A stretch of 64,000 nucleotides of DNA from an uncultured Actinomycetota bacterium (GCA_963839095.1 CAWIUF010000004.1:669-64668); one strand, 5' to 3'. Numbered from the stretch's first letter, positions 1 to 27,375 are shown. Numbers and translations are program-made. Notes: generated from the letters alone by a model not told the origin.

Positions 1-93
1 GTCCGCCGCGATGGCGTCGGTGAGATGGCGGCTGAACTGTCCCGTGGCGCGCAGGTCATAGCGAGGGCAGGTGCGGCAGATCAGCAACGTCAT
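1..93 (-). CDS. 5' end of a small Cys-containing protein (DUF1636-like putative metal-binding protein); the rest lies left of the window
   Basis: ATG at 93-91 preceded by GGGGGGA. Reads MTLLICRTCPRYDLRATGQFSRHLTDAIAAD to the window edge. Family guess from memory only. Confidence 0.35.
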   Translation of the reverse strand, partial: MTLLICRTCPRYDLRATGQFSRHLTDAIAAD

Positions 94-186
94 GGGTGTC
101 CCCCCGGGGATCCGGCACGCGGCATGCCGGGCCGGGCGGGTGGCGTCCGGTCCGGCATGCTGGCGCGGTTATTTATTCGGGCGAGG

Positions 187-1491
187 TCAGGGCCGCTGCT
201 GGATGGTGGCCTGGGTGCTGCTGGTGATCAGCTCGTCCTGGTCCGGCGGCGGGGCGGGCTCGTCGCCTGGCTCCTTGTGGAAGCGGCCATCCTTCATGAT
301 GTAGTGGATCTTGTCGTGGTCTTGCAGGATGGTGATGTCGTCCAGCGGGTTGCCGTCGACCAGGATCATGTCGGCGAGGTAGCCGGGCTGGACCTTGCCG
401 AGCTCGTCCGGGCGCAGCATGATCTCCCCGCCCTGGGCGGTGGCGGACAGGATGGCTTCCATCGGCGTGAAGCCGAGGTGCTCGACGAAGTGCTGCAGGT
501 CGCGGGCGTAGGTGCCGTGCGGGGTCCAGGCGAAGCCGTAGTCGCCGCCGGGCAGGACCCGGATGCCGCGGCGGTGCATCTCGCGCAGCCCGGCGATGGC
601 CATTTCCAGTTCTTTCTTATAGCCGACGGCTTCGGCGGCTTCCTGCGGGAACCCGAAGGCTTCGGCTTCGTAGAGGGTGGCGATGAGCCAGTTCAGGCCG
701 GGGGCGACGAACACCCAGTCCTTGTTGGCCTCGAGCATGTCCATGCCCTCGGCGTCGGTGAAGCTGGCGTGGTAGATGACGTCGACGTGGTTGCGGACGC
801 ACATCTTGACGGATTCGGCGCTGCGGGCGTGGGCGCAGACGCGCTTGCCGCGGCGGTGGGCCTCGGTGACGGCGGCGGCGCATTCCTCGTCGGAGAAGTA
901 GGTGTCCTCGGCGTGCTGGGTGCCGGTGATCTCCTCGCCGGTCATGGACAGCTTGATCTGGTCCACGCCGATGTCGACGAGCTCGCGGACGGCTTTGCGC
1001 ATGCCCTCGGGCCCGTCGGCGAACTTGGTGATCGACTTGATCAGGGCGCCGCCGGTGACGGCGATCTCGGGGCCGTTGGCGAGGTAGCGGGGGCCGGGGA
1101 TGCGGCCGGCGTTGATGGCGTCGCGGCAGACCACGTCGAGGCGTTCCTTGGCCGAGGCGGCGCCCAGGCACATGGTGTAGCCGGAGTCGATGTAGGTGCG
1201 GGCGGACTCGATGCAGAACAGCAGGTGCTCCTCGACCGGCATGGTGCCCAGGCCGTCGAGGTCGGCGCTGTTGTTCCAGCTGAAGTGGGTGTGGGCGTCG
1301 CAAAGCCCGGACATCAGGGTGCGGCCGCGGCCGTCGATGACCCGGGCCCCGGCGGCGGCGTGCGGGTCGACGGTGCCGACCGCGGCGATCCGGTCGTTCT
1401 CGACCAGGACGTCGCCGGGGTAGGGATCGGCGCCGGTGGAGTCGAGGATGGAGACGTTCTTGAAGAGGACTCTTTCGGGGCTGACGGGCAT
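187..1491 (-). CDS. amidohydrolase family metal-dependent hydrolase
   Basis: 434-aa GC3-rich ORF with a DAHTHF metal-binding motif after an N-terminal beta-sandwich-like segment, typical of PF01979-type amidohydrolases. Confidence 0.85.
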   Translation of the reverse strand: MPVSPERVLFKNVSILDSTGADPYPGDVLVENDRIAAVGTVDPHAAAGARVIDGRGRTLMSGLCDAHTHFSWNNSADLDGLGTMPVEEHLLFCIESARTYIDSGYTMCLGAASAKERLDVVCRDAINAGRIPGPRYLANGPEIAVTGGALIKSITKFADGPEGMRKAVRELVDIGVDQIKLSMTGEEITGTQHAEDTYFSDEECAAAVTEAHRRGKRVCAHARSAESVKMCVRNHVDVIYHASFTDAEGMDMLEANKDWVFVAPGLNWLIATLYEAEAFGFPQEAAEAVGYKKELEMAIAGLREMHRRGIRVLPGGDYGFAWTPHGTYARDLQHFVEHLGFTPMEAILSATAQGGEIMLRPDELGKVQPGYLADMILVDGNPLDDITILQDHDKIHYIMKDGRFHKEPGDEPAPPPDQDELITSSTQATIQQRP

Positions 1492-1530
1492 GTCGGTGAC
1501 TCCTGTTACTTCGGGCTGGGCTGTTGCTGG

Positions 1531-2301
1531 TCAGAGGAACTTCAGCAGGTGGTCGGTGACGTCGCGGGCGGCTTCCAGGGCGGTCCAGTGCCCGATGCCG
1601 TCGATGACCGCGACGGTCGCCGAGCCGTGAGCCGCGGCGATGGCCTGGCTGACCGCGGGCGGGCCGGTCTTGTCGTCGCTGCCGGTGATCAGCAGCAGCG
1701 GCAGGCCCGGGTCGACCGGGCCGGGGTCGGTGGCGGCGGCCAGGGCCTCGCAGTTCCGGGCGTAGCCCTCGGGGTCCTGCCGCATGATGAGCTCGCGGAC
1801 GAACGCGGCGACTTCGGGCTTGTCCTGGCGGGTGGTCTCGGACAGGGCGTTGGCGACCACGCCGGGGGCGACGGCCGCGGTGCCGTCCTGGCGCAGGGTG
1901 GCGGCGCGGTCGCGCTGGGCCTGCCGGGCGGCGTCGGCCGGCTCGGCGACGGCGCCGAGCAGGACCAGGCGGGATACCAGGGCGGGGTGGCGGGCGGCCA
2001 GGGTGCGGACCACGAGCGTGCCCATGGAGTGGCCGACAACGGTGGCGTGGCTGACGCCGAGCTGGTCCAGCAGGGCGGCCAGGTCGTCGGCGTGCGAGCC
2101 GATGCTGATGCCGTCCGCGACCGGGGAGCGGCCGGCGCCGGCGCTGTCGACCCGGATCACCCGGAACCGTTCGGCGAGAGCCTGGGCCTGGACCTGGTAG
2201 AAGTTCGAGGTGCCGCCCAGGCCGTGGACCATCAGGACCGGCGGCCCGTCACCGTCGATCTCGACGGCGAGTTCCCGGGGGGTGCTGCCGTTGATGCGCA
2301 T
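1531..2301 (-). CDS. alpha/beta hydrolase (3-oxoadipate enol-lactonase-like)
   Basis: 256-aa ORF with an HGLGG oxyanion region and a GHSMG nucleophile elbow. Confidence 0.85.
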   Translation of the reverse strand: MRINGSTPRELAVEIDGDGPPVLMVHGLGGTSNFYQVQAQALAERFRVIRVDSAGAGRSPVADGISIGSHADDLAALLDQLGVSHATVVGHSMGTLVVRTLAARHPALVSRLVLLGAVAEPADAARQAQRDRAATLRQDGTAAVAPGVVANALSETTRQDKPEVAAFVRELIMRQDPEGYARNCEALAAATDPGPVDPGLPLLLITGSDDKTGPPAVSQAIAAAHGSATVAVIDGIGHWTALEAARDVTDHLLKFL

Positions 2302-2373
2302 GATTTCCTTTCCCGGCCAGCCCCGCGGCGTTGCGTGCGGGGCGGCCGTGTCAGTCGGTAACGGCTCGGCTGG

Positions 2374-3253
2374 TCAGGCGATGCGGTTGCGCTGGGTGCC
2401 GAGCCCGGTGATGGAGACCTCGATGGTGTCGCCGCTGGTCATGAATTTCGGCGGGTCGAAGCCGATGCCGACCCCGGCCGGGGTGCCGGTGGCGATGATG
2501 TCGCCGGGCAGCAGCGTGATGCCCGCGGAGATCGTCTCGATGAGCGTGGGGATGTCGAAGATCAGGTCCGCGACCGGCGCGGACTGGCGCGGTTCGCCGT
2601 TGACCCAGCTCTGCACCACCAGGGCGGTCACGTCGGTGATCTCGTCGGCGGAGACGGCGTAGGGGCCCATCGGGCAGTGGGTGTCCAGCGACTTGCCCAG
2701 CAGCCACTGCTTGTGCAGCCGCTGCAGGTCCCGCGCGGTGTAATCGTCAATTATGGTGTAGCCCCACACATGCTCGAACGCGTGCTCGCGGGCGATCCCC
2801 CGGCCGCCGCGGCCGATGATGACGCCCAGCTCGGCCTCGTAGTCCAGTTCCTTGGTAACGCCGTGGTGCGGGTCGATGTCGTCGAACGGGCCGGTGACCG
2901 AGGTGGTGGCCTTGGTGAAGATGACCGGTGCCTCGGGGAGGGCCTCGGAGCGGTCGGGGGTGTCGTAGCCGCTGCGGCCGAACTCCCGGACGTGGTCGCT
3001 GTAGTTCTTGCCCACGCAGAAGATGTTGCGGACCGGGCGGAGCGGGGCGTGCAGCCGCACCGAGTCCAGCGGGACGGCGGGACGCGATGCCAGCCCATCC
3101 TCCAGCGCGGGGCGGAACGGCGTCCCAGTTACCCAGGACGGCGGCCAGGTCCGGGCCGCCGAGCACGTCGGTGACGTCTCGGATGACGCCCTGATCCGGG
3201 TCAGCGACCCCGGCCCGGGGATCTTCCCCGGCGGTGAATACCGCTAGCTTCAT
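2374..3253 (-). pseudogene. fumarylacetoacetate hydrolase (FAH) family protein split over two frames
   Basis: The catalytic part (VRLHAPLRPVRNIFCVGKNY...) is ORF 2374..3060. A typical FAH N-terminal domain (MKLAVFTAGEDPRAGV...AAVLGNWD) starts at 3253 in another frame. The frames join at ~3112-3124 (..GNWD / PFRPALEDGLASRPAVPLDS..). A real frameshift or a sequencing indel. Confidence 0.7.
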
Positions 3254-3256
3254 GCT

Positions 3257-3392
3257 GAACCAATCTGAACCAATCGAGCCATTATGTTACGACTAGGTTT
3301 CGATGGTAAGCAGGCGCGTATCCGAAGTCGAGAGCTAGAGAGCGCAAATCTGAAAAATACCGCGCCGGGATATTGGTCTCGATTGGTTCAGA
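3257..3392. promoter_or_regulatory. divergent FAH/GntR promoter region with candidate GntR operators
   Basis: GAACCAATC occurs twice in tandem (3257-3265, 3267-3275). An exact 15-nt inverted partner pair is TCTGAACCAATCGAG (3264-3278) / CTCGATTGGTTCAGA (3378-3392), one next to each start codon. Confidence 0.5.
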
Positions 3393-4071
3393 ATGTAAGA
3401 TCGTTCTCGTGACCACCGTCGAGCAGACACTCCGGGCGCTACTGCAGGAACAGACCGCCAGCGGCGTCCTTGGCCCCGGCGGGAAACTGCCCACCGAACG
3501 CGACCTGGCCGGTCAGCTCGCCGCGCCGCGCAGCGAGATCCGCCGCGCCCTGGCCGGCCTCGAACGTGACGGGCTCATCACCCGCCAGGTCGGCCGCGGC
3601 ACCTTCCTCACCGAGACCGCCACCCGCCAGTTCAACGGGGCACCCCCCGACACCAGCCCCGCCGAGATCATGCAGGTCCGCCTCACCATCGAGCCGCCCA
3701 TCGCCGCGCTCGCCGCCCGCACCGCCAACCAGGCCGACCTGGACCGCATCACCGGCTATCTGGACGACGGCGGGAACAGCGACAGCTACGAAGCCTTCGA
3801 GACCCACGACACCCACCTGCACCGGGCCATCGCCCAGTCCGTCCACAACGGCCTGCTCATGAACCTGTTCGACGTCATGAGCACCGCCCGGTCCCTGCCA
3901 GTGTGGGGCAGCCTCAAACGCCGCACCTCCACCCCCGAACGTCGCAAGGATTACCACGAGCAGCACACCGCCATCGTCGCTGCCCTCACCGAACGAGACC
4001 CCGAACGCGCCCAGGCCCTCATGCGCGACCACCTCCGCCACGTCTCCGACGACATGCTCGGACGCCACTAA
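3373..4071 (+). CDS. GntR family transcriptional regulator (FadR/FCD subfamily)
   Basis: wHTH LPTERDLAGQLAAPRSEIRRALAGLERDGLITRQVGRGTFL followed by a helical FCD-like C-terminal domain. The real start may be GTG 3409. Confidence 0.85.
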   Translation: MVSIGSECKIVLVTTVEQTLRALLQEQTASGVLGPGGKLPTERDLAGQLAAPRSEIRRALAGLERDGLITRQVGRGTFLTETATRQFNGAPPDTSPAEIMQVRLTIEPPIAALAARTANQADLDRITGYLDDGGNSDSYEAFETHDTHLHRAIAQSVHNGLLMNLFDVMSTARSLPVWGSLKRRTSTPERRKDYHEQHTAIVAALTERDPERAQALMRDHLRHVSDDMLGRH

Positions 4072-4261
4072 CAGCAGGCTGTCCCGAACGCCTCGGCATC
4101 GTGCCTGGCGGGAACGCCCCTGGAGGCCTGACAAATCGCCGCGGCCTGGGATCAAGGTCACTGCGCATGGTTACGGTCATGGGGCGCTGGCCGCTCCACG
4201 CGTGGAACGGTCCGCGGAACGTCCCGCCGGATAATCCCAGCGCAATTCGAGTCACCAGTGC

Positions 4262-4377
4262 CTGACCGGCGCCATCGCTGCGGCTAGGCCCCACGGTGCA
4301 GGTGACCGGACTTCTTGTAAACGGGCTGACCGACGCTGAAACGGCGTGACCGCCAACTAGGCCAATATCGGGTGACC
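4262..4377 (+). repeat. array of five direct STGACCG repeats (iteron / arm-site-like)
   Basis: CTGACCGG 4262, GTGACCGG 4302, CTGACCGA 4326, GTGACCGC 4346, GTGACCTG 4372. Spacing is 40/24/20/26 nt, in non-coding DNA just left of repeat X copy A. Confidence 0.5.
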
Positions 4378-4521
4378 TGTAGCCATGGTAAAGACGACCG
4401 GCACCGAGATTTCACGGCAGATGCGGCAACTCGTCAACGTGGTCGCGGCCACCCGTGTGGGGTGCCGCGCGAGAGCGAGGTTACGCAAAGTAGCAGTCAT
4501 GCTGGGAGCAGGGACTCGGAC

Positions 4522-4637
4522 GTGGACCGGTTCGTGGAGCGGGTCACCAGAAAATCGCAGCGCCATGAGTGCAGTCAGTGCGATAACTCGCGCTATCGGT
4601 GCAGCTAGCGCGCATGATGCACGAAGCGGTACTTCTC
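4522..4637 (+). repeat. repeat X, copy A (~115 nt, starts GTGGACCGGTTCGTGGA)
   Basis: Aligns by eye with 7440-7552 and 9750-9840. Contains the GCAT-S-ATGCAC palindrome and runs directly into a tRNA 3' half. Confidence 0.6.
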
Positions 4638-4678
4638 ATAATCCGCCGGTCGTGGGTTCGAGCCCCACCCGCCCCACC
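4635..4678 (+). other. orphan tRNA 3' half (anticodon loop CTCATAA, T-arm GTGGG-TTCGAGC-CCCAC, acceptor CCGCCCC-A-CC)
   Basis: Canonical spacing runs from the anticodon loop to the discriminator. The upstream 5 nt (TACTT) cannot pair with TCCGC, and there is no GGGGCGG 5' acceptor strand or D-arm. Confidence 0.6.
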
Positions 4679-4845
4679 TCGCCGATTCCCAGTACAAGCG
4701 CGATTTACCGATGTCAGCGGGAGCGGGGGAGCGGGGGAGCGCGTCAGGTATGCCAGGCCGGGACGGCGGTCTTGGGGCAGATCGTCCGGCATGGTGGTCT
4801 CGCCTGCCCCCAGCTCGGCTAGGCCTAATCGCACGGGATAGTGCT
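4638..4845 (+). repeat. left copy of the ~200-bp direct repeat (tRNA 3' half + spacer + antisense 3' end of the 15207..16334 gene)
   Basis: Near-identical to 15109-15307 except for acceptor substitutions, one extra GAGCGGGG unit and a 1-nt indel. Its minus strand reads ..GLAELGAGETTMP.., a broken copy of the C-terminus ..GLAELWAGETTMPTICLKTAVPAWHT. Confidence 0.8.
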
Positions 4846-4975
4846 ATCCGAGGACCAAGATCCAGCACGCTGGCGTGCTCACTTTCTCCAGCGACCGCCT
4901 GCTGCCGATCGACCTTGCGATCCGGGACTGGGCCCGGCGCGACGAGGCGGTCGCCGAGCGCCCGCGGCGGGTGGA
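4846..4975 (+). pseudogene. orphan internal fragment of the TetR gene at 21373..22002
   Basis: 130 nt match 21626-21755 with a single mismatch seen by eye (gcgcCcgcgg vs gcgcTgcgg). There is no start and no HTH part. Confidence 0.85.
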
Positions 4976-4978
4976 TCG

Positions 4979-5006
4979 GAGGTCGACCGGCGCGCCGGTC
5001 GACCTC
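4979..5006. repeat. perfect 28-bp palindrome GAGGTCGACCGGCG|CGCCGGTCGACCTC
   Basis: Checked base by base. Lies 3 nt after the TetR scrap and 126 nt downstream of the phosphoesterase stop. Confidence 0.9.
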
Positions 5007-5131
5007 GCACAGCTGACCACGAGATCCGCAGCCCAGAGCGGCTGACGCTTACGGAGCCATATGTATACGGTCGAGCAGATCATTAGTCGAAGGGGCGATG
5101 GAGCCAAGTTTTCTCTGTAAGTGCGGCGGCT

Positions 5132-6592
5132 TCAGGACCGGGTAAGGTCGGTTGCCGGGTTCACCGGGAGGATTACTGATGGGCGGGGCGGCTGGCTGAA
5201 GTTGAAGTCGGCCGCCAGGTTGCCGAGGATTTTCACGTTCTCCCGGATGTCAGGTCGCGGGTCGGGACGTCCGTCGGTGCGGGGGTCGATCCGCTGGCCG
5301 TGCAGGAAGTCGTCTTCGATGAACTTGTCGTAAGCGTCGAACGACAGGATCTGGTGGTCGATCATGTCCTGCCGGGCGTAGGGGCTGATGACGATGCCGG
5401 GCACGCGGAGTCCGTAGCCGTTCTGGTCGACTGCCGGTGGTGGTACTTGGTCATAGAAGCCACCCCAGTCATCCCAGCTCAGGAAGATGGCGGTGGAGGA
5501 CCAGTCCGGGCCCTTCATGATCGCGTTGATGAGGCCGGTGACGTAAGTCTGGCCCGCGCTGACCAGGCCGGGCGGGTGCTCGCTGACCTTCCCCGACGGC
5601 GCGATCCAGGACACCGCGGGCAGTGTTCCGGTCTGCGCCGCCCGGTAGAACCCCGACAGGTCCTCGATGTTGCCTTCCTGATGGTCGGCCTTGACCGTGT
5701 TGAAATAGGGCAGCGGGTTCCAGATGCCCGGGGTCTTGGCGTTCTGCTTGACCGCCGCGCAGGTCATGGCCGTGTCGTCCTCGCAGTCCGGCTGGGTGCC
5801 TTTCATCACGTAGTACGCCCACGACACGTGGTTTTTGTACATCAGGTAGGTCAGGTCGGTCCAGGCATAGATCGGCGCCTTGGCGGCAGCCGCCTTCTTC
5901 TTGGGCGGACTGCCGGGGTTCTGCAACGCGTTCCGGCAGCTGGCGGGGTTGTTGTGCTGGGTGCAGTGCGCTGACCACTCTGACACCAGGAACAGGTGCG
6001 AGGGCAGGCTCCAGGACGCGTTGGGTTCGAACATGTGGTCCTGCAGCACGAAGTCCTTGGCGTAGGCCCAGTAGTTCGGGATCTCCTGGCCGTTGTGGTA
6101 GCCCATGACGTCGGACGTGCGGCCGGTTGTGCAAGCCGGGTTGTTGGGGTCCTTGCAGTTTTTGGTGGAATGTTCGGCCTGGCCGACGAAACCGTTCATC
6201 TTCCCGCCGTTGATGTCGGCCGTCGCGTTGGTCGCGCCGTGCGGCCCGCCGTGGTTGAGATCGGCGGTGTCGTGATAGGGCCGGTCGCAGCCGCCGGTCG
6301 CCGGATCAGGCACGCAGACGGCGGGGACGCCGTTGCTCATCGGAATGCCGTCGGCTCCGGGAAAGGTGCCGAAGTAGCTGTCGAACGAGCGGTTTTCCTG
6401 CATGATCACGACAACGTGCTTGATCTTGTGGATGCCCTGGGCAATGCTGCCTGCCGCCGTACTGGTGCTGGCGGCCGGGCTGGCGCTGGTGCAGGCTGCG
6501 AGGGTGAAAAGAGCCGTGCTGACCAGGACACCGAACGTGACGACCTTGGTCCGGTGCTCGCTAATTACCATGCGAGCATTCAAGACCATCAT
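5132..6592 (-). CDS. secreted phosphoesterase-family lipoprotein (phospholipase C / AcpA acid-phosphatase-like)
   Basis: 486 aa. Signal peptide with lipobox LAAC, and the [26 protein letters not shown] motif of the PLC/phosphoesterase family. Confidence 0.85.
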
Positions 6593-6859
6593 GCTGGGCG
6601 GCCTGATTCAGAACGCTGAGCGGTCTGCTTGATGCTGCTGCGGGTCGGCGGTGGGCCTGCCGTGAGCCGGCTGAGAACGCCGGGAGCGGCCTGTGCACGT
6701 CCGGCAGCCCGTGGATGAGCCGGACTGGGGTTGCGGTCACAGATCTTGGACCTGACCAGCTCGGCGCAGACTCGGCCAGGGCTAGGAACACCAGGGCCAG
6801 CAGCGTGGCAGCCAGCCCGCAATAGTCATTGCGGAGCCTGCCGTAGACCGCCGTGTTGT

Positions 6860-7128
6860 GACGTCAGGCTGTCGGTCCACTTCGTTACCATTGACCCTCA
6901 TGAGCGAACGCCCGCCGGCGACACCCAGAAAAGAAATAGCGGCCAGGTAGTAGCGGTGGTCGTGCCCATCGAGGAGTACCAGCAGCTGCGCCGGGCGAGC
7001 AAGAGCAGCAGGTCAACGAGGAGTTCGACGCTGCCCGGGCCAGCTACCTGGCCCGGCGTGAGGCCGGGGCGATCCGCTACGTATCGCACGAGGAAGCGGG
7101 TCGCCGCCTGGGCATGCCACCCCGGTGA
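6860..7128 (+). pseudogene. Phd/YefM-like antitoxin remnant
   Basis: ..RNSGQVVAVVVPIEEYQQLRRA in one frame continues as EQEQQVNEEFDAARASYLARREAGAIRYVSHEEAGRRLGMPPR* in another. No clean start. The stop TGA 7126-7128 overlaps the toxin GTG. Confidence 0.45.
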
Positions 7129-7370
7129 CCTATCAGGTCACCTGGGAGATTCAGGCTCTAGACCGGCGGCGGCTTCCTCCGCGATGATCCCGTCGGTGTC
7201 ACTGCGCTCAGGGGCACTGCCAGCTCGCCGGTGAGCCGCGGCCGCCGGAGTCGTTCCCGTACGGGTCGCCGGATCTGCGCCGCCTGCGAGCAGGGCGGTA
7301 CCGCGCCTTCTACACGATCGACGAAGAACAGCGGGTAGTCCAGATCGACCACGTTGCCCGCCCGCCGTAG
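7125..7370 (+). pseudogene. RelE/ParE family toxin with at least 2 frameshifts
   Basis: Pieces lie in three frames: VTYQVTWEIQALD.. / ..FLRDDPVGVTALRG.. / ..LAGEPRPPESFPYGSPDLRRLRAGRYRAFYTIDEEQRVVQIDHVARPP*. GTGA overlap with the antitoxin. Confidence 0.6.
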
Positions 7371-7439
7371 CCCTGGCCTATCAAGCCCCTGTCGGCGGTA
7401 ACGTTCTGTAGCTGGCATCCGGTGATCACCATGGAAGGC

Positions 7440-7552
7440 GTGGACCGGTTCGTGGACCGCGCTATCAGTGCAAACGGTGCAATCAGGGTCATCGGCGGCA
7501 CGGCTCCGCGGTATCCGTGCAGGTAGCGTGCATCATGCACGAAGCCGTACTT
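7440..7552 (+). repeat. repeat X, copy B
   Basis: GTGGACCGGTTCGTGGACCGCGC...GTGCATCATGCACGAAGCCGTACTT, immediately followed by a tRNA 3' half. Confidence 0.6.
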
Positions 7553-7596
7553 CTCATAATCCGCCGGTCGTGGGTTCGAGCCCCACCCGCCCCACC
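7553..7596 (+). other. orphan tRNA 3' half (same sequence as 4635-4678)
   Basis: CTCATAATCCGCCGGTCGTGGGTTCGAGCCCCACCCGCCCCACC. The downstream flank differs from copy A, and there is no 5' half. Confidence 0.6.
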
Positions 7597-7673
7597 CGCA
7601 GTTTCACCAGTGGTCGCGGCCACGCGGACGAGGACCTCGACGGTCGACCTGGCGCCGTCTCGTGCCGAATCGC

Positions 7674-8711
7674 TTAGCTGCGGAGGGCGTTACGGCAGAT
7701 AACCAGCGCCTGCTGGATGTCCGCGGAGCTGATGCCGTGATGGGTCACGAAGCGAACCAGGTCCGGGCCGTATTCTCCGCCGAGCAACCCCTGGTCCGAG
7801 CATCCGGTGAGGAAGTCGGCCGCGTGCATGTTCTTCAACCGGAAATACGCGATGTTGGTCTGGACCCTGCTGAGGTCACAGTCGATCCCCGGCATCTCGG
7901 CCATGCCCTCGGCCAGCGAGCGCGCGTTTTCATGGTCATCGGCGAGCCGCCCCGTCATTGTCGCCAGGGCTACCAGGCCAGCGGCGGCTAGGACACCGGC
8001 CTGCCGCATACCCCCGCCCAGCATCTTGCGCCAGCGTCTGGCTTGCCTGATCTTCCCCGCTGGTCCGCACAGCATGCTGCCGACCGGGCAGCACAACCCC
8101 TTGGACAGGCAGAACGAGACCGTGTTGGCGTACTGCGCGATAGCCCGGACATCCGCGCCGGTCGCGACGGATGCGTTAAAGATCCGGGCGCCGTCCACGT
8201 GCACAGCCAGGCCGCTGGAGCGGGCAGCCTCGGAAAGACGCCGCAGATCCTGCTCGGGCCAGGCGACTCCGCCGTGCCAGTTATGCGTGTTCTCGATAAT
8301 GACGGCAGCGGACAGCGGCTGGTGGTCATCGTCGGTCGGGCGGAGCGCGGTCAGGAGTTGCGCCGGGCTCAGTATGCCGCGCTCCGTCGGGACCTGCCGG
8401 ACCTGGATACCTCCGACCATCGCGGCTCCAGCCGCCTCGTTCAGGAACAAGTGGGAGTCAGCATCCGCGATGACCTCTTGCCCGGAACGAGCGTTGACGA
8501 GCAGCCCGAGCAGATTACCCATCGTCCCGCTGGCAACGAACAGGGCCGCTTCCTTGCCCATCCGATCGGCCGCCGTCTCCTCCAGCCGTCTGACGGTCGG
8601 GTCCTCGCCAAACACATCGTCACCGAGCGGTGCGCTCGTCATGGCCCGGAGCATGTCCTCCGTGGGAAGCGTCACCGTGTCGGAGCGCAGGTCAATCTTG
8701 CTCATGTCCAA
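7674..8711 (-). CDS. ltaE: low-specificity L-threonine aldolase (PLP-dependent)
   Basis: 345 aa. IDLRSDTVTLPT...GDDVFGEDPTV...FVASGTMGNL.., colinear with threonine aldolases. Confidence 0.8.
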   Translation of the reverse strand: MDMSKIDLRSDTVTLPTEDMLRAMTSAPLGDDVFGEDPTVRRLEETAADRMGKEAALFVASGTMGNLLGLLVNARSGQEVIADADSHLFLNEAAGAAMVGGIQVRQVPTERGILSPAQLLTALRPTDDDHQPLSAAVIIENTHNWHGGVAWPEQDLRRLSEAARSSGLAVHVDGARIFNASVATGADVRAIAQYANTVSFCLSKGLCCPVGSMLCGPAGKIRQARRWRKMLGGGMRQAGVLAAAGLVALATMTGRLADDHENARSLAEGMAEMPGIDCDLSRVQTNIAYFRLKNMHAADFLTGCSDQGLLGGEYGPDLVRFVTHHGISSADIQQALVICRNALRS

Positions 8712-9018
8712 CTCGCTTCGCGCGATAGGTCATCACTGCTGCCGAAGGCACTGACCCGAGGGCTCACGGGCCGGGGATGTTACCGATTTTCCGCCAGGGT
8801 ACGCGCAGTGCGGCCGCTGGACTTCGCTGCGGCTCCATCCCGGACCTCCCCTCGTGACTGAGGCATGAGCGAGGCCGGTTGCCGCCACGAGTTCCTCCCG
8901 GGAAGCCGGGGCGGGACCGGCAACCAGACGCACCGGGAGCGGGTCACCTTCGAGCACAAGATCGCGGTTCGTATGGTGACACGTTCGGCCCACTTTACGG
9001 TCGGCACGCCGTTCGGGG

Positions 9019-9414
9019 TTAGCTGATCCAGTTCACCTGGATGATGACCACGCGTTCGCCGCGGACGTCGGTCAGGTAGACGAGCATTAACGGGCCCCGC
9101 TGGACGGTGCGCAGTCCCGGCGGCTCGCCGGCGAATTCCCGCCCGTCGAGGAAGATCATCGATTCGCGGACGGTCAGTTCCTCGGCTACCTGACGGACCG
9201 CCTTCAGTGCGGCAGGTGGCAGCCCGCCGAGGAGGTCATCGTGACGATTCCCAGTGCCGCGGCCACCCGCGACCTCGCGGTAGGCCGCCTGGACGATCTC
9301 GGCGGCTTCCCGGACCGCCTGGTTCGGACGGCGGGGTCGGGGTCGGCGAGGGCTCGTTCGGTGGGTGCAGCTGGGCGGCGGCCGAGGGCCGCCGCTCGAT
9401 GGCGACGGCGGCAA
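9019..9414 (-). CDS. ORF with a RelE/ParE-like toxin C-terminal half; the N-terminal part is atypical
   Basis: The C-terminus ..FAGEPPGLRTVQRGPLMLVYLTDVRGERVVIIQVNWIS fits the RelE/ParE core. The upstream 9240-9640 region has overlapping open frames with no clean antitoxin. Confidence 0.4.
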   Translation of the reverse strand: MPPSPSSGGPRPPPSCTHRTSPRRPRPRRPNQAVREAAEIVQAAYREVAGGRGTGNRHDDLLGGLPPAALKAVRQVAEELTVRESMIFLDGREFAGEPPGLRTVQRGPLMLVYLTDVRGERVVIIQVNWIS

Positions 9415-9749
9415 CCCAGCGCTGGTAGAAGTGGCGGATGGGGAAGACGCTGTCCTCTTCCCCGCCTGGTGAAGGCGTCCTGGATCTCCTGGAAGAACTC
9501 CGGCAGCCGGGCCGGGGACCGGGGCGACCGCCTGGCGCAGAGCGGGCAGCGACAGGACGGCACGGAAATCAACGGCTGGTCACCCCGCGGGTACTCGGCA
9601 GTCACCCAGCCCGCCTCCTTGACGTCCAGCAGCAGAATAAGCCGTGCCGCGCCTCGAGGCGGAGTCTGGCATTCGCCCGCGCGGGGGGGGGCTGGGCGCT
9701 CGTGATGGCGTTACCACAGTAACAGGACGGGAGGATGCCGGCGCTTGCC

Positions 9750-9840
9750 GTGGACCGGTTCGTGGACCGAGCCACCCGTGCCAACGGTGCAATGAGCGCC
9801 ATCGGCGGCACGGCTCCGTGGCATCGGTGCTAGCTGTGCT
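9750..9840 (+). repeat. repeat X, copy C (no tRNA half attached)
   Basis: GTGGACCGGTTCGTGGACCGAGCC...ATCGGCGGCACGGCTCCGTGGCATCGGTGCTAG, about 80% like copy B by eye. Confidence 0.55.
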
Positions 9841-10045
9841 CGTTGTGCCGGGCTGCCGCCTTGGCGGGGGTCAGCGTGAACGCGGCCCAGAAGATCAGCG
9901 CGGCTACGGCGAAGAGCGCCGCTCCCCACTGGTAGCCGTGCGCGATAAGGATGATGCCCAGGATCAGGTTCCAGGCGCCGGCGGTGATGCGGATGCCGGT
10001 GACGCCGTGGGGGTGACGGTATCCCCATGACCGTGCTGCAGACAT
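9830..10045 (-). CDS. small two-TM membrane protein
   Basis: ATG 10045. MSAARSWGYRHPHGVTGIRITAGAWNLILGIILIAHGYQWGAALFAVAALIFWAAF.. has two hydrophobic spans and a GC3-rich frame. Confidence 0.5.
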   Translation of the reverse strand: MSAARSWGYRHPHGVTGIRITAGAWNLILGIILIAHGYQWGAALFAVAALIFWAAFTLTPAKAAARHNEHS

Positions 10046-10451
10046 CGCGTGCTCTCTTGCGAGCGGTGCCCGGCCTGTCCGGCCACCTGTCTCTATGCTC
10101 TTGCACGCCGGGCGGGGATCCATCATGCGACCACCCGAACCCCAGGTACGCCTACCACGATCCCGGGTCCAGCCTCCGGCAGCGCCGGTAACTGTTTCAG
10201 GGGCACCACGCCAGAATGGCCGTAGACGGGCTGCGGGTGCGGGATCAAGCTCAACGTCAAAAGGACCTCCGCCACCTCAACGTGAGGCGCTACGAGAGCT
10301 GGTACCAGGTGATCCTTGACGATTTCTAGACTTGATCCTCCGCCCTGTCGCTGGCCCCGGTCTAACCGCCGTGGAGCCGAACGCTCTGGGGATTTTCTGC
10401 CATAGCAAGGTAGAGACCATCATCCAGCTGCGGTAGAGGAGCCATCGGCAG

Positions 10452-11442
10452 ATGAGAGCAGGCAAAGCCAGCGAAGACAGCCGAGGGCACCGTCCCGTCA
10501 GTGGCGGCGCGACGACTGATGTCGGCCACGCGAGCGGCGTTGACGGGCTAATCGCCGCGAGGGTGGGCCTTGCGGACCAGCTGCGGGCCAGCGGCCGGGC
10601 AGGCCCGGCAGTGAGCGCCGTTTTCGGGATAGTTCCCCGGCACGCCTTCCTGTCTCAGATCGAAGCTGAGAACGCCTATCAGGACTCCGCCATCGTGATC
10701 AAGTCAGATGCCAGCGGCCTGCCGGTGGGCGCGTCCACCCAGCCCGCCATCATGGCGATCATGCTTGGCCAGCTCGGGCTCGCCAATGGGCAGCGTGTGC
10801 TCGAGATCAGTACCGGCACCGGCTACAACGCGGCACTGATCGCCGAGATCATCGGCGACCCGAATGCCGTCGTCACGATCGATGTCGAACCTGACCTGAT
10901 CGAGCAGGCACGTGTGAACCTGGCGCCAGCTGAAGAACACAGGAAGGCAAGGGCGATGATCGACACACTGATCCGGTCGGCTCCCCCGGACGGCGCGACC
11001 GATGGCCAGACTCCGGCTGCGGTCGAGGGGCGCCCGTCCGGGCTCGCCCGGCATGCGACGTCGGCGCCGGGGGCGGCTGTGGGCACTCCTGCACGCTCAG
11101 GCTCTGCTCGCGGCCCGGCCGCGGACGGGGCCGGCATCGAAGATGACTCGCGGCGTATGGCTGGCCCGGGGCAAGGTGACCCGTGGCTATCTAGCTGCTG
11201 CCGGTTACGCCGGCGGGCTGACCCAGCGCGGCGACTTCGGGATTGTTGTCCAGGGCTACGGCGCGGCCGGGACCAGCCTCGCTGAGCACCTGGCCCGGCA
11301 GGCGGCCGTCTGGGACCGGCTACGCAGGCCGGGCGCTGACAGTCTGGAACTTGCCGCCTATCCGGCAGGCACGCTTGTGAAGGCGCCCGGAGGCAGCGTG
11401 AGATCACACAGTGGTACGGCCACAATGGCGGCGTGGCGCTGA
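10452..11442 (+). pseudogene. protein-L-isoaspartate O-methyltransferase-like (PIMT family) gene with an internal deletion or frameshift
   Basis: The N-terminal half is good (..VPRHAFL..ASTQPAIMAIMLGQLGL..RVLEISTGTGYNAALIAEI..) and then breaks after ARVNLAP. A typical C-terminal tail (..RGDFGIVVQGYGAAGTSLAEHLARQAAVWDRLRRP..) is in another frame (ORF 11002..11442). Confidence 0.55.
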
Positions 11443-11450
11443 GGAGCGAT

Positions 11451-12006
11451 GTGGAATCAGACAGTGACCTGATTGAACGGTCAGTACGCGGCCGTCCCGA
11501 AGCGTTCGTTGAGGTGGTCCGCGTCACGAGGTTGCCATTCATGGCTTCCTCGCCCGCCGAGCGCGACGTCAGGATGCCGATGATCTGCTAGCCGAGGTAT
11601 GGATGCGCGCCTTCGCAGCACGGACCGGCTACGACCTGGGCTACAGCGACGCGCGGCCGTGGCTTTACGGGATCGCCCGGAATGTGCTGCGCAGCCACTG
11701 GAGAAACAGTAGCGGCGCATATTACGACGCCCCCGACGAGACAGTTGACCCTGTGGGACGACGTGAATGACCGGCTGGAATCTATCGGCCGGAGTACAAG
11801 CACTGGCGTCGGCGGTGCGGGCACTTCCGGCCGCTGAACGTGAAGTCCTGCTGCTCGTGGCGTGGGAGCAGCTCACGCCGGCGGAGGCCGCAAAAGTGCT
11901 TGGAGTTCCGCAAGGCACGGCACGGAGTCGCCTGCACCGGGCTCGAGCCGTACTGCGTCGCGTGCTCAGCGCACACGGCGCCGAGGGTGCTGAGGTGAAA
12001 AAATGA
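11451..12006 (+). pseudogene. ECF sigma-70 factor with at least 2 frameshifts
   Basis: GTG 11451 after GAGGAG. Region-2 text (DLIERSVRGRPEAFVEVV.. / ..LLAEVWMRAFAARTGYD..RPWLYGIARNVLRSHWR) and region 4 (ALPAAEREVLLLVAWEQLTPAEAAKVLGVPQGTARSRLHRAR) lie in different frames. Confidence 0.65.
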
Positions 12007-12254
12007 GCAGGGACAACGAAGAGCCCCAGATCACTGACCAGCTATGTGCAATCGGTCAGGTCGAGCCGCCCTCTGCCAGCGTGCTCGACGACGCGCGCGA
12101 AACGCTGTGGTCAGCTATTGCCGATGAAATGCTCGATAGCGGCCTCGCGGACAGGCAGACGACATCGGCAGGATCAGATGAGGATGGTCGCACGGCACGA
12201 CGACGCCAGCAGAACCGCTCGCAAAATATCGAGCGCCGCCTAGGAAACGCTTGA
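12003..12254 (+). CDS. short hypothetical protein in the anti-sigma position (probably truncated)
   Basis: ATGA overlap with the sigma stop. 83 aa, no TM segment. Confidence 0.35.
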   Translation: MSRDNEEPQITDQLCAIGQVEPPSASVLDDARETLWSAIADEMLDSGLADRQTTSAGSDEDGRTARRRQQNRSQNIERRLGNA

Positions 12255-12827
12255 TCATAACTGCCGCCACTCCCAGCGCGGGCGGTGTCTACGATCAGCT
12301 CGAGCTTTTGAGTCAACGATCAGTCGGAGTCGGGCATGAATAGCCCTAACGATCATGTTCGCCAGCGCCTATCCCTACGGATGGCCACCGATGCGGCCCG
12401 GTGGATCGAGACGGCGCCCGTCAGTGAGAACGACCGCCGCAAATCTGCTACAGCAACGCGGCGGCACTATTCGGCATCCCCAGGTAAGTCCACGTCACCT
12501 CGGGACCGATCCGATCCCGCCGCCCGCGCGTGACCACAAGCCGTGCAGCTCTCAAGCGAGCACAAGGCATAATCTGACCAAACGAGGTGGCTATCCCGCC
12601 TCCCTCAGCCGATTTGCCCCGGATGGTGCCGCCATGACCGGTCTGCCAGACCTGATCGGGCTGCTCACCGGGCCGACTGGACCCGCCTGTCCCTGTCGGC
12701 CGAGCTGCGCGCCGAATATGGCCAGGAGCCGCCCCCGCGCTCACCGTGCAAGTACCGGTCCCGCTGGTACCGCGACTGGCCGGGGCAGAGCCGGCCATGC
12801 CGAGCTGCCCGGCGGCGGACACCACGA

Positions 12828-13555
12828 TCACTCTGCGTGGCGCTGTTTATGATCAGGCACGCGAACAGCCGCTGCTCTCCCTCGGGCGATGCCGCACGGG
12901 GGCCGCCGTCGCAGCGGTTTAGATCCAGCTGTCCCACACTGCGGGAAGCGCGCGCGCATGCTCGCCGGTTTCCTGGTCCGCGGTTGCCTGCTAGGCCATT
13001 CATAGGTGAGCCTGGGCGAGATGGCGAAGCTGCCGCAAGCCGTGAGCTCTGGGTAGGACTCGGCCAGCCAGGGCAGCATCGGCGGGCCGCCCGCCCAGGC
13101 CGAGAAGGCGGGCAGCGTCACCTCGATGTCCCGCGGACCGCGCCGGGACCATTCAAAATCCAGCAGCCCCACGACGCGGCCGTCCTGGACCAGGACGTTA
13201 GCCGGGGTGCAGTCGCCGTGCAGCACCACATCCGCGTCCCGGCTGATCGTGAGCTGCCCGCCAGCAGTTCCGCCTCCCGCATCAGGCGGTCAACGTCGCC
13301 GCGGTAGCAGACCTGCAGCACCATGTCCCCGGGCAAGAACCACGTATCGTTCGAACCGCTCTCCACGAAGACCTCGTTGCCGGTGAGCCGCAAGCCCGCC
13401 AGCTTCGCGACCTGGGCTAGGCGACGCCGGGCGACCACCTCATCCCAGGGCCATCGCGGTATCCCGTCCACGACCGGCACACACCGCCGGGCAGGTTGTA
13501 CGGGCCCGTGAAGCGGGCGATCAGGTCCGCGTCCATAACATCGAACATTCCACAT
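12828..13555 (-). pseudogene. aminoglycoside/choline-kinase-type phosphotransferase (APH family), frameshifted
   Basis: HGDCTPANVLVQDGRVVGLLDFEW catalytic/Mg loop in ORF 12828..13229. The N-lobe (..LRLTGNEVFVESGSNDTWFL..) is in ORF 13118..13651. The frames join near 13240. Confidence 0.6.
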
Positions 13556-14115
13556 AGCGGCGGACAGCACCACGCCACCCAGGCAAGGCGAAAATATCCG
13601 GCCGGGCATGCGGCTCTCGCGGCGCGACGAGCAGGGAATCCGGTCACTCACTGTGACGGCTGTGGCATTGGCCGCATGACCGCCACTGGGCAGATCCGGA
13701 TGACCGTCTACAGTCCCGCGGGTCAGCGGCCGGCCGCAAGCCGGTTCCGGAGGGACGCAAAACGCTGTTGAGGCGCGGGGGCCTGGCCGTATCCGCCAAA
13801 GCCGCCGCGCGCTCTCACACCGGTGACGTGCGGTCCGTTCTCATGAACATCAACCGCGTCCCGCCGTGCCCATGTGCGGCTAAAAGTCACGAACGAAGTC
13901 ACCTCGCTGCGGTGACCCATCTGGTCGTCGGCGACGGCGGGCCTGGTGACCGCAGCGCCCGGCATGCCGCGGATAAATCCCATGTGCGGCAGGTGGCCGG
14001 GCATGGGCCTGTAGCGGGGGGCATTCGCCCTGGTTTACTATCCCCTGATGGCCGGTACGCGCTCCGGGTTGAGCGAGTCACGGCGGGTATGGGGGAACAC
14101 GGACAGGAGCGGCTG

Positions 14116-14962
14116 ATGCCATCAACCCCCCCGGACCTGAGCCTGACCCCGGACCCGGACGCCAGTCCCGGCCAGGCAGCCCAGCCGGGTTTTGACGTCT
14201 CCAGGGCTCACCCAGCCCGGATCTATGACTACTCGCTCGGCGGGAAGGACCACTTCCCGGCCGACCGCGAGGCCGCCGAGCAGGCCATCAGGGATTTCCC
14301 CGGGATCGTCTCCTCGGTCCGCGCACAGCGCGTGTTCCTCGGGCGCGTTGTCCGTTACCTCGCCGGCCAGACGGGCGTCCGCCAGTTCCTCGACATCGGC
14401 ACCGGGTTGCCCGCCGAAACAACACGCACGAGGTGGCCCAGTCCGTGGCGCCGGAAAGCCGGATCGTCTACGTCGACAACGACCCGATGGTGCTCGCGCA
14501 CGCCCGGTCGCTCCTGGCCAGCAGCCCGGAGGGTGCCACCGACTACCTCGACGCCGATCTGCGCAATAGCGGTGGGATCATCGAGCGTGCCGCTGCCACC
14601 CTGGACTTTTCCCGGCCGGTAGCGGTCATCCTGATCGGCATCCTCCACCTGATCGGCAACGAGGACGGGCCGCACGTGATCGTCCGGCAGATCATGGCTA
14701 CCGTGCCGTAAGGCAGCTGGCTGGCGATCCTCCACCCGGCCAGCGACATTAGCTCGAGCTAGACAAGATGACCAAGGGGTACAACAAGAAGTCCGCGACG
14801 TCGGCGACGCTGCGGAGCCGAGCCGAGGTGTCCGCGTTCTTCGACGGCCTGAACCTGCTCCCGCCAGGACTCGTGCACCTAGGCTGCTGGGTAGCTGGAA
14901 GCCCCCAGCCTGCTCCTGAGCCCGGCATGCCGGCCTGGACCGGGCTGGCATCCAAACCCTGA
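14116..14962 (+). pseudogene. DUF574-type SAM-dependent methyltransferase with a frameshift and in-frame stops
   Basis: ARIYDYSLGGKDHFPADREAAE.. then a frame change near 14420 (..SRIVYVDNDPMVLAHAR..). TAA at 14708-14710 and TAG at 14758-14760 interrupt ..VP*GSWLAILHPASDISSS*. The tail ..RSRAEVSAFFDGLNLLPPGLVHLGCW is in a third frame. Confidence 0.65.
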
Positions 14963-15108
14963 ACCTCGTTGGCCGGGTGCACGGTGCCCGGAGCGCACGC
15001 TGCTCTGGGCAAGAACCTCGGTGCGGGGTCCGGGGAGAACCAGAACAGGATGGGACGCTGAGGTCGGCCCTGTCGGCGGGTCGCACTCTGAGCGCGCGGG
15101 CCAGGCTG

Positions 15109-15149
15109 ATAATCCGCCGGTCGTGGGTTCGAGCCCCACCGGCCTCACC
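15109..15149 (+). other. orphan tRNA 3' half, variant (loop CTGATAA, acceptor CGGCCTC)
   Basis: Same anticodon-stem/T-arm as the other two. GAGGTCG at 15060-15066 could pair with the acceptor, but the 56 nt in between give no D or anticodon arm. Confidence 0.5.
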
Positions 15150-15307
15150 TCGCCGATTCCCAGTACAAGCGCGATTTACCGATGTCAGCGGGAGCGGGGG
15201 AGCGCGTCAGGTATGCCAGGCCGGGACGGCGGTCTTGAGGCAGATCGTCGGCATGGTGGTCTCGCCTGCCCACAGCTCGGCTAGGCCGACCCGCACGGGA
15301 TAATGCT
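15109..15307 (+). repeat. right copy of the ~200-bp direct repeat, contiguous with the intact gene 15207..16334
   Basis: See 4638-4845. Confidence 0.8.
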
Positions 15308-16334
15308 GCGGACGGTTCCACAGCGAGTAGACGTCCTGGCCGTCGCCCGTAGCCACCGCCATATGGGTCGAGGTGTCTTCGCCTTCCCTGACGCCCGAGG
15401 CGTAAAAGGCCACCAGGTCACCGCGTTGCAATCGCAGGGCAGGCAGGTCCGTCCACCGGACCTTCTCGGTGCCGAAGTCTGCGCCGAGGGTCTCGGCCCA
15501 GTACTCGCTGCCGCCCGCGGAGCTGCCGGAGCGGCTGTTCGCGGCGGCGACGAAGCCGGGGCGCAGCCGGGCCAGGGCCGCGGCGTACGGGGCCAGCTCG
15601 TAGCACATCAGCTCCACCTGGCTCGTGGACGGCGGCAGCGCGAGGTCCATATCGAGCATGGCGCCGGGCACTTCGGCCTCGCCGGGAGCGTTCGGCTTGC
15701 TGACCAGGTGCCAGCCCGGTTTCCGCGGCGAGGGTTGGGCCTGGATCTCGTCACCGGCCTCGACCAGGGTGGTGCGACCGGGGATGGTGTGATCTTCTCG
15801 CAGCGTGCCCTGGAAATAGAAGCTGCTGCCCCGGCCATCGGTCCGCCTGGGCAGGCCGTCCTCGCCGGTGATCAGCTCGACCTTCGACCGCGGTACTGGC
15901 CGGGGGCCGATGTCCGTTAGCAGGACGTCCCACTCGTCCGCATCGGGCCGGTACGCCTCCCCGGGTACCCGCACGGCGGTCCCCGCCCGGAGGATCTCGT
16001 CCTCCTCGCGGAGGCTGAATTCTTGCGTGGCCCGCCCGCGGTTCCGCCAGGCCCCCCCGGAACCCCAGCTGATGTTCGGCTTGTCCAGGAGGTATCGGTC
16101 GACGGCGGCGCCCAGCACCTCGTCCACCGAGCTCGGCGCCACCCACGCGGAGCGGGTGGCGCCCTGGCGCGGTACCGTCACCCTGAACCGCCCGTTCCGC
16201 TTCTCCTCGACCGTGACATGCTCGCCTGCCAGGACCGGGAAATCCTCGATCGTCTCGTCCCGCAGCAGCACGCCGGTCCACGGGAACACAAGCCGCTCGT
16301 GGCACGGCCCGGCCGAGGCCCCAGTTTCGGTCAT
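15207..16334 (-). CDS. hypothetical cytoplasmic protein: three SH3-like repeats plus a possible papain/NlpC-P60-like C-terminal domain
   Basis: 375-aa GC3-rich ORF with no signal peptide. Three similar ~55-aa segments (LRDETIEDFPVLAGEHV.., LREEDEILRAGTAV.., LREDHTIPGRTTLV..). The C-terminal part has Cys (ELMCYEL), GDLVAFY and THMAVATGDG. The domain call is inference. Confidence 0.65.
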   Translation of the reverse strand: MTETGASAGPCHERLVFPWTGVLLRDETIEDFPVLAGEHVTVEEKRNGRFRVTVPRQGATRSAWVAPSSVDEVLGAAVDRYLLDKPNISWGSGGAWRNRGRATQEFSLREEDEILRAGTAVRVPGEAYRPDADEWDVLLTDIGPRPVPRSKVELITGEDGLPRRTDGRGSSFYFQGTLREDHTIPGRTTLVEAGDEIQAQPSPRKPGWHLVSKPNAPGEAEVPGAMLDMDLALPPSTSQVELMCYELAPYAAALARLRPGFVAAANSRSGSSAGGSEYWAETLGADFGTEKVRWTDLPALRLQRGDLVAFYASGVREGEDTSTHMAVATGDGQDVYSLWNRPQHYPVRVGLAELWAGETTMPTICLKTAVPAWHT

Positions 16335-17413: not shown

Positions 17414-17416
17414 CGG

Positions 17417-27270: not shown

Positions 27271-27375
27271 CTCTAGGCTGACATGAAGTCCAGCTGCCTG
27301 GGTACCGGTGATGCCACCTTTCGGCTGCAGCCGAACCGTTGCCAGCAACGAGTTGCTCGACCCTAGGCTCCTCCC

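Follow-up and report, generated by a model that had tools for sequence, protein, structure and literature searches.

A pseudogene-rich region in an uncultured actinobacterium is probably the decayed end of a tandem array of tRNA-targeted integrative elements

The 64,000-nucleotide stretch of DNA analysed here (the window; GCA_963839095.1, CAWIUF010000004.1:669-64668) comes from an uncultured Actinomycetota bacterium and contains, between about 4.1 and 15.2 kb, a patch of mostly broken genes interspersed with copies of the 3′ half of a tRNA gene. This patch, and the family of tRNA-targeted integrative elements from which it probably derives, are the subject of this study. An initial annotation of the sequence had drawn attention to two direct repeats of about 200 bp that begin in a tRNA anticodon loop, and alignment bears this out: positions 4635-4845 (211 nt) and 15106-15307 (202 nt) share 193 matches, with nine mismatches, one 8-nt indel, which is an additional GGGAGCGG-type unit, and one 1-nt indel. 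The repeats start in the anticodon loop of tRNA-Met(CAU), as CTCATAA in the left copy and CTGATAA in the right copy, and continue, much as had been described, through the variable loop, the T arm, the 3′ strand of the acceptor, a spacer of 57 nt and the antisense tail (the final ~33 codons) of an open reading frame (ORF) at 15207..16334 on the minus strand. This ORF is intact (375 aa) and joined to the right copy; the left copy is an orphan that carries only a fragment of it. A 31-mer common to the repeat copies, ATAATCCGCCGGTCGTGGGTTCGAGCCCCAC, has three exact occurrences in the window, against none in 100 shuffled sequences.

Scanning one genome per species with this 31-mer recovered at least 117 stretches, most of which belong to Streptosporangiaceae or to further genome bins of uncultured Actinomycetota; the analysis covered 117 loci (relatives' contigs are referred to by labels such as L001). 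At 61 or more of the sites the 31-mer forms the 3′ half of a complete gene, GGGGCGGTAGCTCAGCCGGTCAGAGCAGCGGACTCATAATCCGCCGGTCGTGGGTTCGAGCCCCACCCGCCCCA, identified by ARAGORN as tRNA-Met(CAT); the sequence of the tRNA-Met(CAU) gene targeted by the family begins GGGGCGGTAGCTCAGCCGGTCAGAGCAGCGGACTCATAATCC. Within the window the 3′ half of tRNA-Met(CAU) occurs three times, always on the plus strand (at 4635, 7553 and 15106), and each copy runs for 44 nt from anticodon-loop position 32, the first base of the loop, to the discriminator base plus CC. We refer to these 44 nt as the core of the attachment (att) site and number the copies together with the arms that precede them. Core copy 1 (4635..4678), comprising tRNA positions 32-73 plus CC, equals the consensus of the intact genes, as does copy 2 (7553..7596), which is absent from the initial annotation. 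Copy 4 (15106-15149) is mutated, reading CTGATAA in the loop and CCGGCCTCACC in the acceptor strand. ARAGORN and Rfam detect no intact tRNA and no other known RNA anywhere in the 64-kb window, and a structured RNA or tRNA-like gene was rejected as an explanation on the same searches.

Every half-tRNA copy in the window is preceded by an arm, and never by the 5′ half of a tRNA. The arm is about 200 nt long, starts with CGTGGACCGGTTCGTGGA(C/G)CG and ends with ...GGTACTTCT at the anticodon. A profile of the arm (nhmmer; model length 273), built from 44 arms of other genomes, matches the window five times, all on the plus strand, with E values from 3e-68 to 3e-12. Copy 1 of the Met-type arm, which we call the P arm, lies at 4473..4634 (match 4473-4678, E 2.7e-50), includes CGTGGACCGGTTCGTGGAGCG at 4521 and belongs to repeat families D2 and D4. 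The best preserved is copy 2, at 7334..7552 (match 7334-7595, E 3e-68), and copy 3, at 9697..9853, has no core (E 9.5e-28, model positions 61-222 of 273). Of copy 4 only the tail of the arm is left (15083-15105), directly ahead of the mutated core (15083..15149 in all, E 3e-12). The remaining match, at 4162-4320 (E 5e-14), belongs to a degenerate attR-like junction of another type (4162..4345, plus strand), in which an arm starting CGTGGAACGGTCCGCGGAACG ends in CTTGTAAACGG. Alignment with tRNA-Thr and with the attR of a related contig, L124, identifies CTTGTAAACGG as the start of the 3′ half of tRNA-Thr(TGT), the remainder of the core having decayed; window positions 4162-4345 are 73.5% identical (blastn) to L124 10727-10912. 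The Met-type cores thus decay away from the expected tRNA side, copies 1 and 2 being pristine, copy 3 coreless and copy 4 an arm tail with a mutated core, a gradient consistent with a tRNA on the left and newer elements closer to it. Both internal units, 4679-7596 and 7597-9853, have kept their att sites and contain no recombinase by Pfam or tblastn.

The same arm family precedes at least 48 half-tRNA copies in other actinobacterial genomes. Several relatives (e.g. L015, L022, L025, L103 and L109) carry two to four arms per locus on the same strand, typically 0.7-5.7 kb apart, and because such multi-arm loci recur among the relatives fetched, tandem arrays appear to be the rule for this element family. 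One end of the element holds an intact tRNA in L007, L019, L085, L113 and L124, and a tyrosine recombinase lies beside the att site in L073, L099 and L124. In L073, L099 and L115 an intact tRNA-Met is followed by a second kind of arm, P′, with the same CGTGGACCGGTTCGTGGACCG motif, and then by a tyrosine recombinase of about 500 aa that combines PF00589 with an internal GntR-type helix-turn-helix (Pfam). This arrangement, with a rebuilt tRNA, P′ arm and integrase at one end and a P arm with a half tRNA at the other, is the usual configuration of an element that has integrated at the 3′ end of a tRNA gene. The GTGGACC-N6-GTGGACC motif present in both arms is a candidate binding site for the integrase. 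In the window itself no integrase remnant was found, either as PF00589 among the island ORFs scanned or by tblastn with the relatives' integrases, in keeping with the earlier view that no recombinase survives in the region. Other tRNA genes also lie close to arms: L083 carries a cluster of tRNA-Lys(TTT), tRNA-Ile(TAT), tRNA-Met(CAT) and tRNA-Ile(GAT) at 2375-2731, and L085 a tRNA-Ile(TAT) at 4173-4249.

Elements of the Thr type and the Met type have homologous integrases (74% nucleotide identity, measured between the L124 integrase and Met-type integrases), and their arms are homologous up to ...GGCCGTACTTCT; the arms differ only in the 44-nt core (TGTAAACGGC... vs CATAATCCGCC...). The two variants look like a natural case in which an integrase family has been retargeted between tRNAs by replacement of the core. 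IMG/VR contains no match to the arm motif or to the integrase, and annotated phage and plasmid integrases match in the catalytic domain only, at below 30% identity. A prophage origin was rejected on these grounds, GenBank phages likewise giving only distant catalytic-domain matches. Judged by these comparisons, the integrase and its elements appear to belong to no known family and to form an uncharacterised one that is widespread in uncultured actinobacteria.

The junction of Thr type bears directly on the left edge of the region, which had been taken as flanking DNA. Positions 10..4070 form a conserved block that encodes, by Pfam, an amidohydrolase (190-1530), an alpha/beta hydrolase (1534-2373) and an FAA hydrolase (2377-3243), all on the minus strand, and a GntR/FCD regulator (3310-4068) on the plus strand. 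The block is syntenic in six metagenomic contigs (L124-L129) at 78-94% identity, and in all six the homology ends at about 4070, right after the stop codon of the GntR gene. In L124 the block stands inside a complete element: tRNA-Thr(TGT) (1138-1212), a P′ arm with CGTGGAACGTTTCGTGGAACG and a 504-aa integrase, together spanning 1138-2816, are followed by the block and four further genes and then by the Thr arm with the half tRNA, the arm and tRNA-Thr 3′ half lying at 10788-10942. The 3′ end of the integrase gene is directly upstream of the block in L128. We accordingly read the block as cargo of a Thr-type integrative element and not as native flank. Since the arm at 4162-4320 is of Thr type and L124 has this layout, window positions 1-4345 would represent the distal part of such an element, with the integrase and tRNA, if still present, lying just outside the window. 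Compared with L124, L125 and L126, the FAA hydrolase gene of the window carries one extra base close to its 5′ end, at 3118; the long ORF stays open, and its N-terminus may differ.

On the right, the ORF at 15207..16334 marks the edge of the variable region in this lineage. It has no Pfam family, is 94% identical to P0001 over its full length and has 12 homologues, all metagenomic, with conserved synteny in L001-L003. L001 is 94% identical to the right flank, its homology running from 18067 down to 15186; in L002 and L003 (92-95% identical) homology breaks earlier, at 15248 inside the ORF. L001 shows a further-decayed arm tail and the start of a core at the same spot, and a full arm with core 2.9 kb away. 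In L002 (3544-3668) and L003 (1868-1992) the ORF is interrupted at the position matching 15248 of the window and joined there to the beginning of an arm, giving a truncated product of 341 aa (P0005). Judged by the decayed arm and core in L001 and the ORF-arm fusion in L002 and L003, att material has long adjoined this ORF in the lineage. No arm lies close to the more distantly related versions of the ORF (48-75% identical). Beyond the synteny breaks (~4070 on the left, 15186 or 15248 on the right) the content differs in every relative.

A comparison of both flanks with related genomes had been proposed as a way to find an empty site. None was seen in the six left-block relatives or in the three 92-95%-identical right-flank relatives, no left-block relative links to the right flank, and the recovered contigs that carry the right flank have neither an empty site nor an adjacent tRNA. 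As the left flank is itself island cargo, an empty-site test with these flanks cannot work.

Further observations concern the ORF and its neighbour. A scan of genome contigs with the ORF protein gave no relative, and neither this protein nor the GntR regulator had an exact match among known proteins. In L004-L006 a longer homologue (536 aa, 75% identical) overlaps the end of an AbiEi_4 antitoxin-like gene, a hint that the family may be a toxin or defence partner. At 16455-17416 on the minus strand lies a sigma-factor gene that L001 and L002 carry as a single gene of 330-337 aa; in the window, the loss of 1 nt near 17064 divides it into two frames, which reflects either a genuine pseudogene or an error in the sequence.

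Between the junctions, two genes are intact and most of the others are partial or frameshifted, as the initial annotation had described. By Pfam, both a phosphoesterase (~5132..6607, minus strand; PF04185, profile positions 1-353 of 356, E 8e-62) and a beta-eliminating lyase of the threonine aldolase type (~7674..8729, minus strand; PF01212, positions 1-286 of 288, E 6e-96) are full length. A TetR/AcrR C-terminal scrap at 4842..5042 on the plus strand has no Pfam match and is recognisable by tblastn (82% at the amino acid level over 45 residues to annotated TetR/AcrR genes). Downstream lies a Phd/YefM-like antitoxin with a ParE toxin (6848..7390, plus strand), both pseudogenes; ParE is a Pfam fragment, and the family assignment of the antitoxin is weak. 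This pair is 84-90% identical to intact arm-side pairs in L109, L122 and L058, has seven indels in its coding part relative to L122 and L109, and represents a module that adjoins the arm in many relatives. A RelE/ParE-like module (9016..9666, minus strand), which has no Pfam family, likewise precedes the arm in many relatives and shares 85-90% nucleotide identity with L085, L083, L026, L108, L008 and L007. Its toxin-like ORF (9019-9240) is intact, with no indel and 93% amino acid identity to the relatives. The partner upstream (9241-9666) has suffered 11 separate deletions of 1-2 nt in about 400 nt, measured against four relatives that agree with one another. A toxin-antitoxin pair would hardly be expected to keep a toxin-like ORF alongside a destroyed partner, unless that toxin were inactive or silent.

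Farther right, a PCMT-like methyltransferase pseudogene (10437..11370, plus strand; PF01135, positions 6-122 of 210) matches its intact L062 homologue only over residues 21-196 and 377-446 (tblastn), and an ECF sigma pseudogene (11480..12003, plus strand; Sigma70_r4_2, E 3e-15) has region 4 in frame at 11767-12003 and its upstream part in another frame. An APH (aminoglycoside/choline kinase-type) pseudogene fragment at 12831..13289 on the minus strand retains positions 167-207 of 239 of PF01636 only, and a Methyltransf_19 (formerly DUF574) pseudogene at 13657..14619 on the plus strand retains positions 4-83 of 268 of PF04672 only. Two scraps listed earlier, one ROK/MarR-like (8733-8993) and one resembling an IS701 transposase tail (10195-10321), found no match by Pfam or tblastn. 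Ten small ORFs gave no Pfam match at E values up to 1, and tblastn against plasmids confirmed the TetR scrap only. The flanks, over about 7 kb, present a different pattern of indels from the modules described above: relative to the other contigs these are almost all intergenic, with about two single-base indels in coding sequence.

The segment at 12511..12794 (plus strand) is a fragment of another kind. It matches L016, L018, L022, L032, L084 and L120 at 78-81% (blastn) and, as tblastn and nhmmer also show, consists of the upstream region and the N-terminal ~75-90 codons of a conserved gene of about 570 aa. In several genomes (L018, L022, L032, L084 and L120) this gene starts about 275 nt after an arm and core; the protein is a recurrent unit of arm arrays and in full length has no Pfam family. 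That the segment might be native flank downstream of tRNA-Met was considered and rejected, given that the gene occurs twice per contig after an arm and core in L018 and L084. Elsewhere in the window, 32872-34638, 26239-29033 and 44005-46061 resemble, at 73-86% identity, genes located no more than a few kilobases from an arm and core in L049, L122 and L077. A hidden att core was sought at 32.8 kb, beside the gene that follows an arm and core in L049, and none was found.

The long repeats extend well beyond the att site, since the core makes up only their first 44 nt. The other 167 nt comprise 37 nt that match nothing found, about 20 nt of spacer common to L001, and the ~33-codon ORF tail. The right copy of this extension (15150..15307, plus strand) has homology to L001 from 15186 onwards; the left copy (4679..4845, plus strand) duplicates it, with substitutions of its own, a 1-nt insertion and the orphan gene-tail fragment. 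Wherever the copies differ within the gene tail, the right one matches L001 and L002, so the left copy is the decaying duplicate. It meets unrelated DNA at 4845/4846, a junction that lies outside every repeat. The extension, including the truncated gene tail, cannot be produced by an integrase crossover, and a secondary duplication is needed. Two candidate routes are the Campbell-type homologous insertion of a circle bearing the segment and the repair of a break that used the right copy as template and was sealed through end joining.

Taken together, these features are best explained, and in our judgement probably, by the region from ~4.1 to 15.2 kb being the old, distal part of a tandem accretion array, since decayed, of elements of one tyrosine-integrase family. 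Recombination would take place at the tRNA 3′ half, from position 32 to the acceptor end (44 nt), of tRNA-Met(CAU), with a tRNA-Thr(TGT) variant at the left edge. Each integration of an attP into the tRNA would rebuild the tRNA beside the incoming integrase and leave a P arm with a half-tRNA copy at the far end of the element. The next element would enter the rebuilt tRNA and shift the older ones outward, and these would in time lose integrase and cargo through deletions and frameshifts. What remains would be remnants bounded by att sites and devoid of integrase, that is, cis-mobilizable elements (CIMEs), in which the toxin-antitoxin modules beside the P arm would last longest, possibly retained by selection. 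The order of these events in the array is reconstructed from its present anatomy and may have been different. On this account the long repeats would be the first and last Met-type cores, lengthened by the later 167-nt duplication, in which the integrase had no part. The proposal made earlier, of integration at a tRNA 3′ end followed by accretion and decay, survives in its general form, supported by the same arm and core beside an integrase in relatives; the borders, the left flank and the repeat length then assumed have had to be given up.

Those borders had implied that one island of ~10.7 kb entered a tRNA 3′ end in a single event, with the 200-bp repeats as attL and attR. It is true that the two longest and most similar repeats bracket the region and start in the anticodon loop, but further copies of arm or core lie both between them (7334-7596, 9697-9853) and outside (4162-4345), neither repeat is joined to a tRNA 5′ half, the 167 nt beyond the core with their truncated gene tail are not something an integrase crossover duplicates, and the supposed left flank is island cargo in L124. 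A single integration is, on this evidence, very unlikely. A still poorer account is that arm and half tRNA together form a small non-autonomous repeat, akin to a miniature inverted-repeat transposable element or a tRNA-derived short interspersed nuclear element, that spreads alone. As expected of such a repeat, the unit of about 250 nt is highly conserved, recurs many times on a contig and is mostly without an integrase in its vicinity. Against this, all copies in an array share one orientation, tRNA identity begins exactly at the anticodon loop as in the att cores of tRNA-targeting integrases, the same arm motif recurs in the P′ arm directly upstream of the integrase at intact tRNAs, and L124 holds a complete element of tRNA, integrase and arm with half tRNA. 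The repeat analysis of the window also saw neither target-site duplications nor terminal inverted repeats at the arm units, and we regard independent spread as extremely unlikely.

We consider it quite unlikely that the locus is in part an artefact of assembly, in which co-occurring strains were joined at arm and core repeats, so that the array, or the orphan gene tail, is present in no single genome. Arms and cores are repeats of 80-95% identity with exact stretches of about 45-55 nt, and the two lone single-base frameshifts in conserved flank genes (3118 and ~17064) could be sequence errors. Independent assemblies of many genomes, however, show similar same-strand arrays, and since the 4845/4846 junction lies in no repeat, a misjoin mediated by repeats fails to explain the truncated gene tail. 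The confinement of indels to specific modules, with ORFs of 1.0-1.5 kb intact between them, also argues against a generally error-rich assembly.

Several observations nevertheless weigh against reading the region as a decayed accretion array. All of the closest relatives are metagenomic contigs, so the window too may derive from a metagenome assembly, and its att repeats offer points at which strains could have been joined. The 64-kb window contains no tRNA and no integrase, and htpG, the habitual upstream neighbour of tRNA-Met in relatives, is absent from it. The Met-type array directly follows a Thr-type junction, an order that simple accretion at one tRNA does not yield, so the reading has to suppose a deletion, or a rearrangement between homologous elements located at two tRNAs. 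The integrase mechanism leaves the 167-nt extension unaccounted for, and an attempt to see the 37 nt that follow cores 1 and 4 as a P′ arm remnant, suggested by a likeness by eye, was abandoned when an nhmmer P′ model and short-word blastn gave no match. Compositional support is weak: GC content is 3-7 points lower inside the island (0.63-0.70, vs 0.68-0.73 in the flanks), but GC content at third codon positions in the two intact island genes (0.83-0.88) is close to that of the right flank (0.85-0.89). Finally, excision and integration by this family are predictions from sequence.

Tandem accretion with decay to CIMEs, through integration, decay and renewed integration at a regenerated site, has been reviewed (PMC5704250, which refers to Pavlovic et al. 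2004 and to Bellanger et al. 2011) for islands related to ICESt1 and ICESt3 of Streptococcus thermophilus and for IMEs in general. Such arrays resemble the window in having several direct att copies in one orientation and internal units that keep their att sites and lack integration and transfer genes, and the published three-step history fits the anatomy described here. The differences lie in host and target: the ICESt1/ICESt3-related elements belong to Firmicutes and use the 3′ end of a protein-coding gene, fda, whereas the window comes from an uncultured actinobacterium and its target is a tRNA. Cis-mobilisation has been shown experimentally for those islands, while any mobility of our array is predicted from sequence. 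A further difference is that, within the window at least, neither the tRNA-proximal end of the array nor its integrase survives.

The integrative and conjugative elements of actinomycetes (AICEs) offer a comparison closer in host, as tandem AICEs have been described at one tRNA-Arg with a 44-bp att site between them (PMC2440964). Both they and the window family have actinobacterial hosts and a tyrosine integrase acting at the 3′ part of a tRNA, and their att site of ~44 bp has the length of the 44-nt core found here. AICEs carry replication genes (RepSA, RepAM or Prim-Pol) and FtsK/SpoIIIE-like transfer genes along with int and xis. Replication or FtsK-like transfer genes were not found among the Pfam-scanned ORFs of the window or of the partly sampled L073, L099 and L124, neither set having been scanned exhaustively, and because the sampled parts lack them we assign the element family neither to the AICEs nor to the prophages. 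The integrase of the window family is set apart by its low identity to the annotated plasmid and phage enzymes (below 30%) and by its GntR-type helix-turn-helix.

A further reading of the units themselves deserves mention, namely that arm and half tRNA are the working ends of integrase-less cassettes of 1-3 kb, moved at tRNA-Met and tRNA-Thr by an integrase acting in trans. The typical cargo of such cassettes could be a toxin-antitoxin pair or the conserved 570-aa protein. Integron cassette arrays are similar in their same-orientation units of 1-3 kb, which lack a recombinase of their own and have a recombination site between one unit and the next; toxin-antitoxin cassettes, too, are frequent in the two kinds of array. 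The sites differ, being a tRNA half with long arms (attP/attR type) in the window and attC in integrons; the window family has a tyrosine integrase and long att arms beside a tRNA, whereas integrons have IntI with attI and Pc. The units of the window are, moreover, most simply deletion remnants of larger elements and those of integrons captured cassettes, and we hold trans-mobilised cassettes to be possible though doubtful. If true, they would amount to a tRNA-anchored, integron-like system in uncultured Streptosporangiales that is retargeted by swapping the 44-nt core while the arms are kept.

As a decayed accretion array, the 11-kb pseudogene patch is explained by ordinary island turnover and involves no new principle. 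The locus also illustrates that the apparent flanks of such a patch can be island material themselves. Beyond this, the analysis defines the att anatomy, comprising a 44-nt tRNA-half core, a P arm of ~200 nt, a P′ arm and a common GTGGACC repeat motif, of an integrase family that had not been characterised and that occurs commonly among uncultured actinobacteria of soil and peat. This anatomy would aid the annotation of genomic islands in these genome bins, and the family could supply site-specific integration tools for Streptosporangiales.

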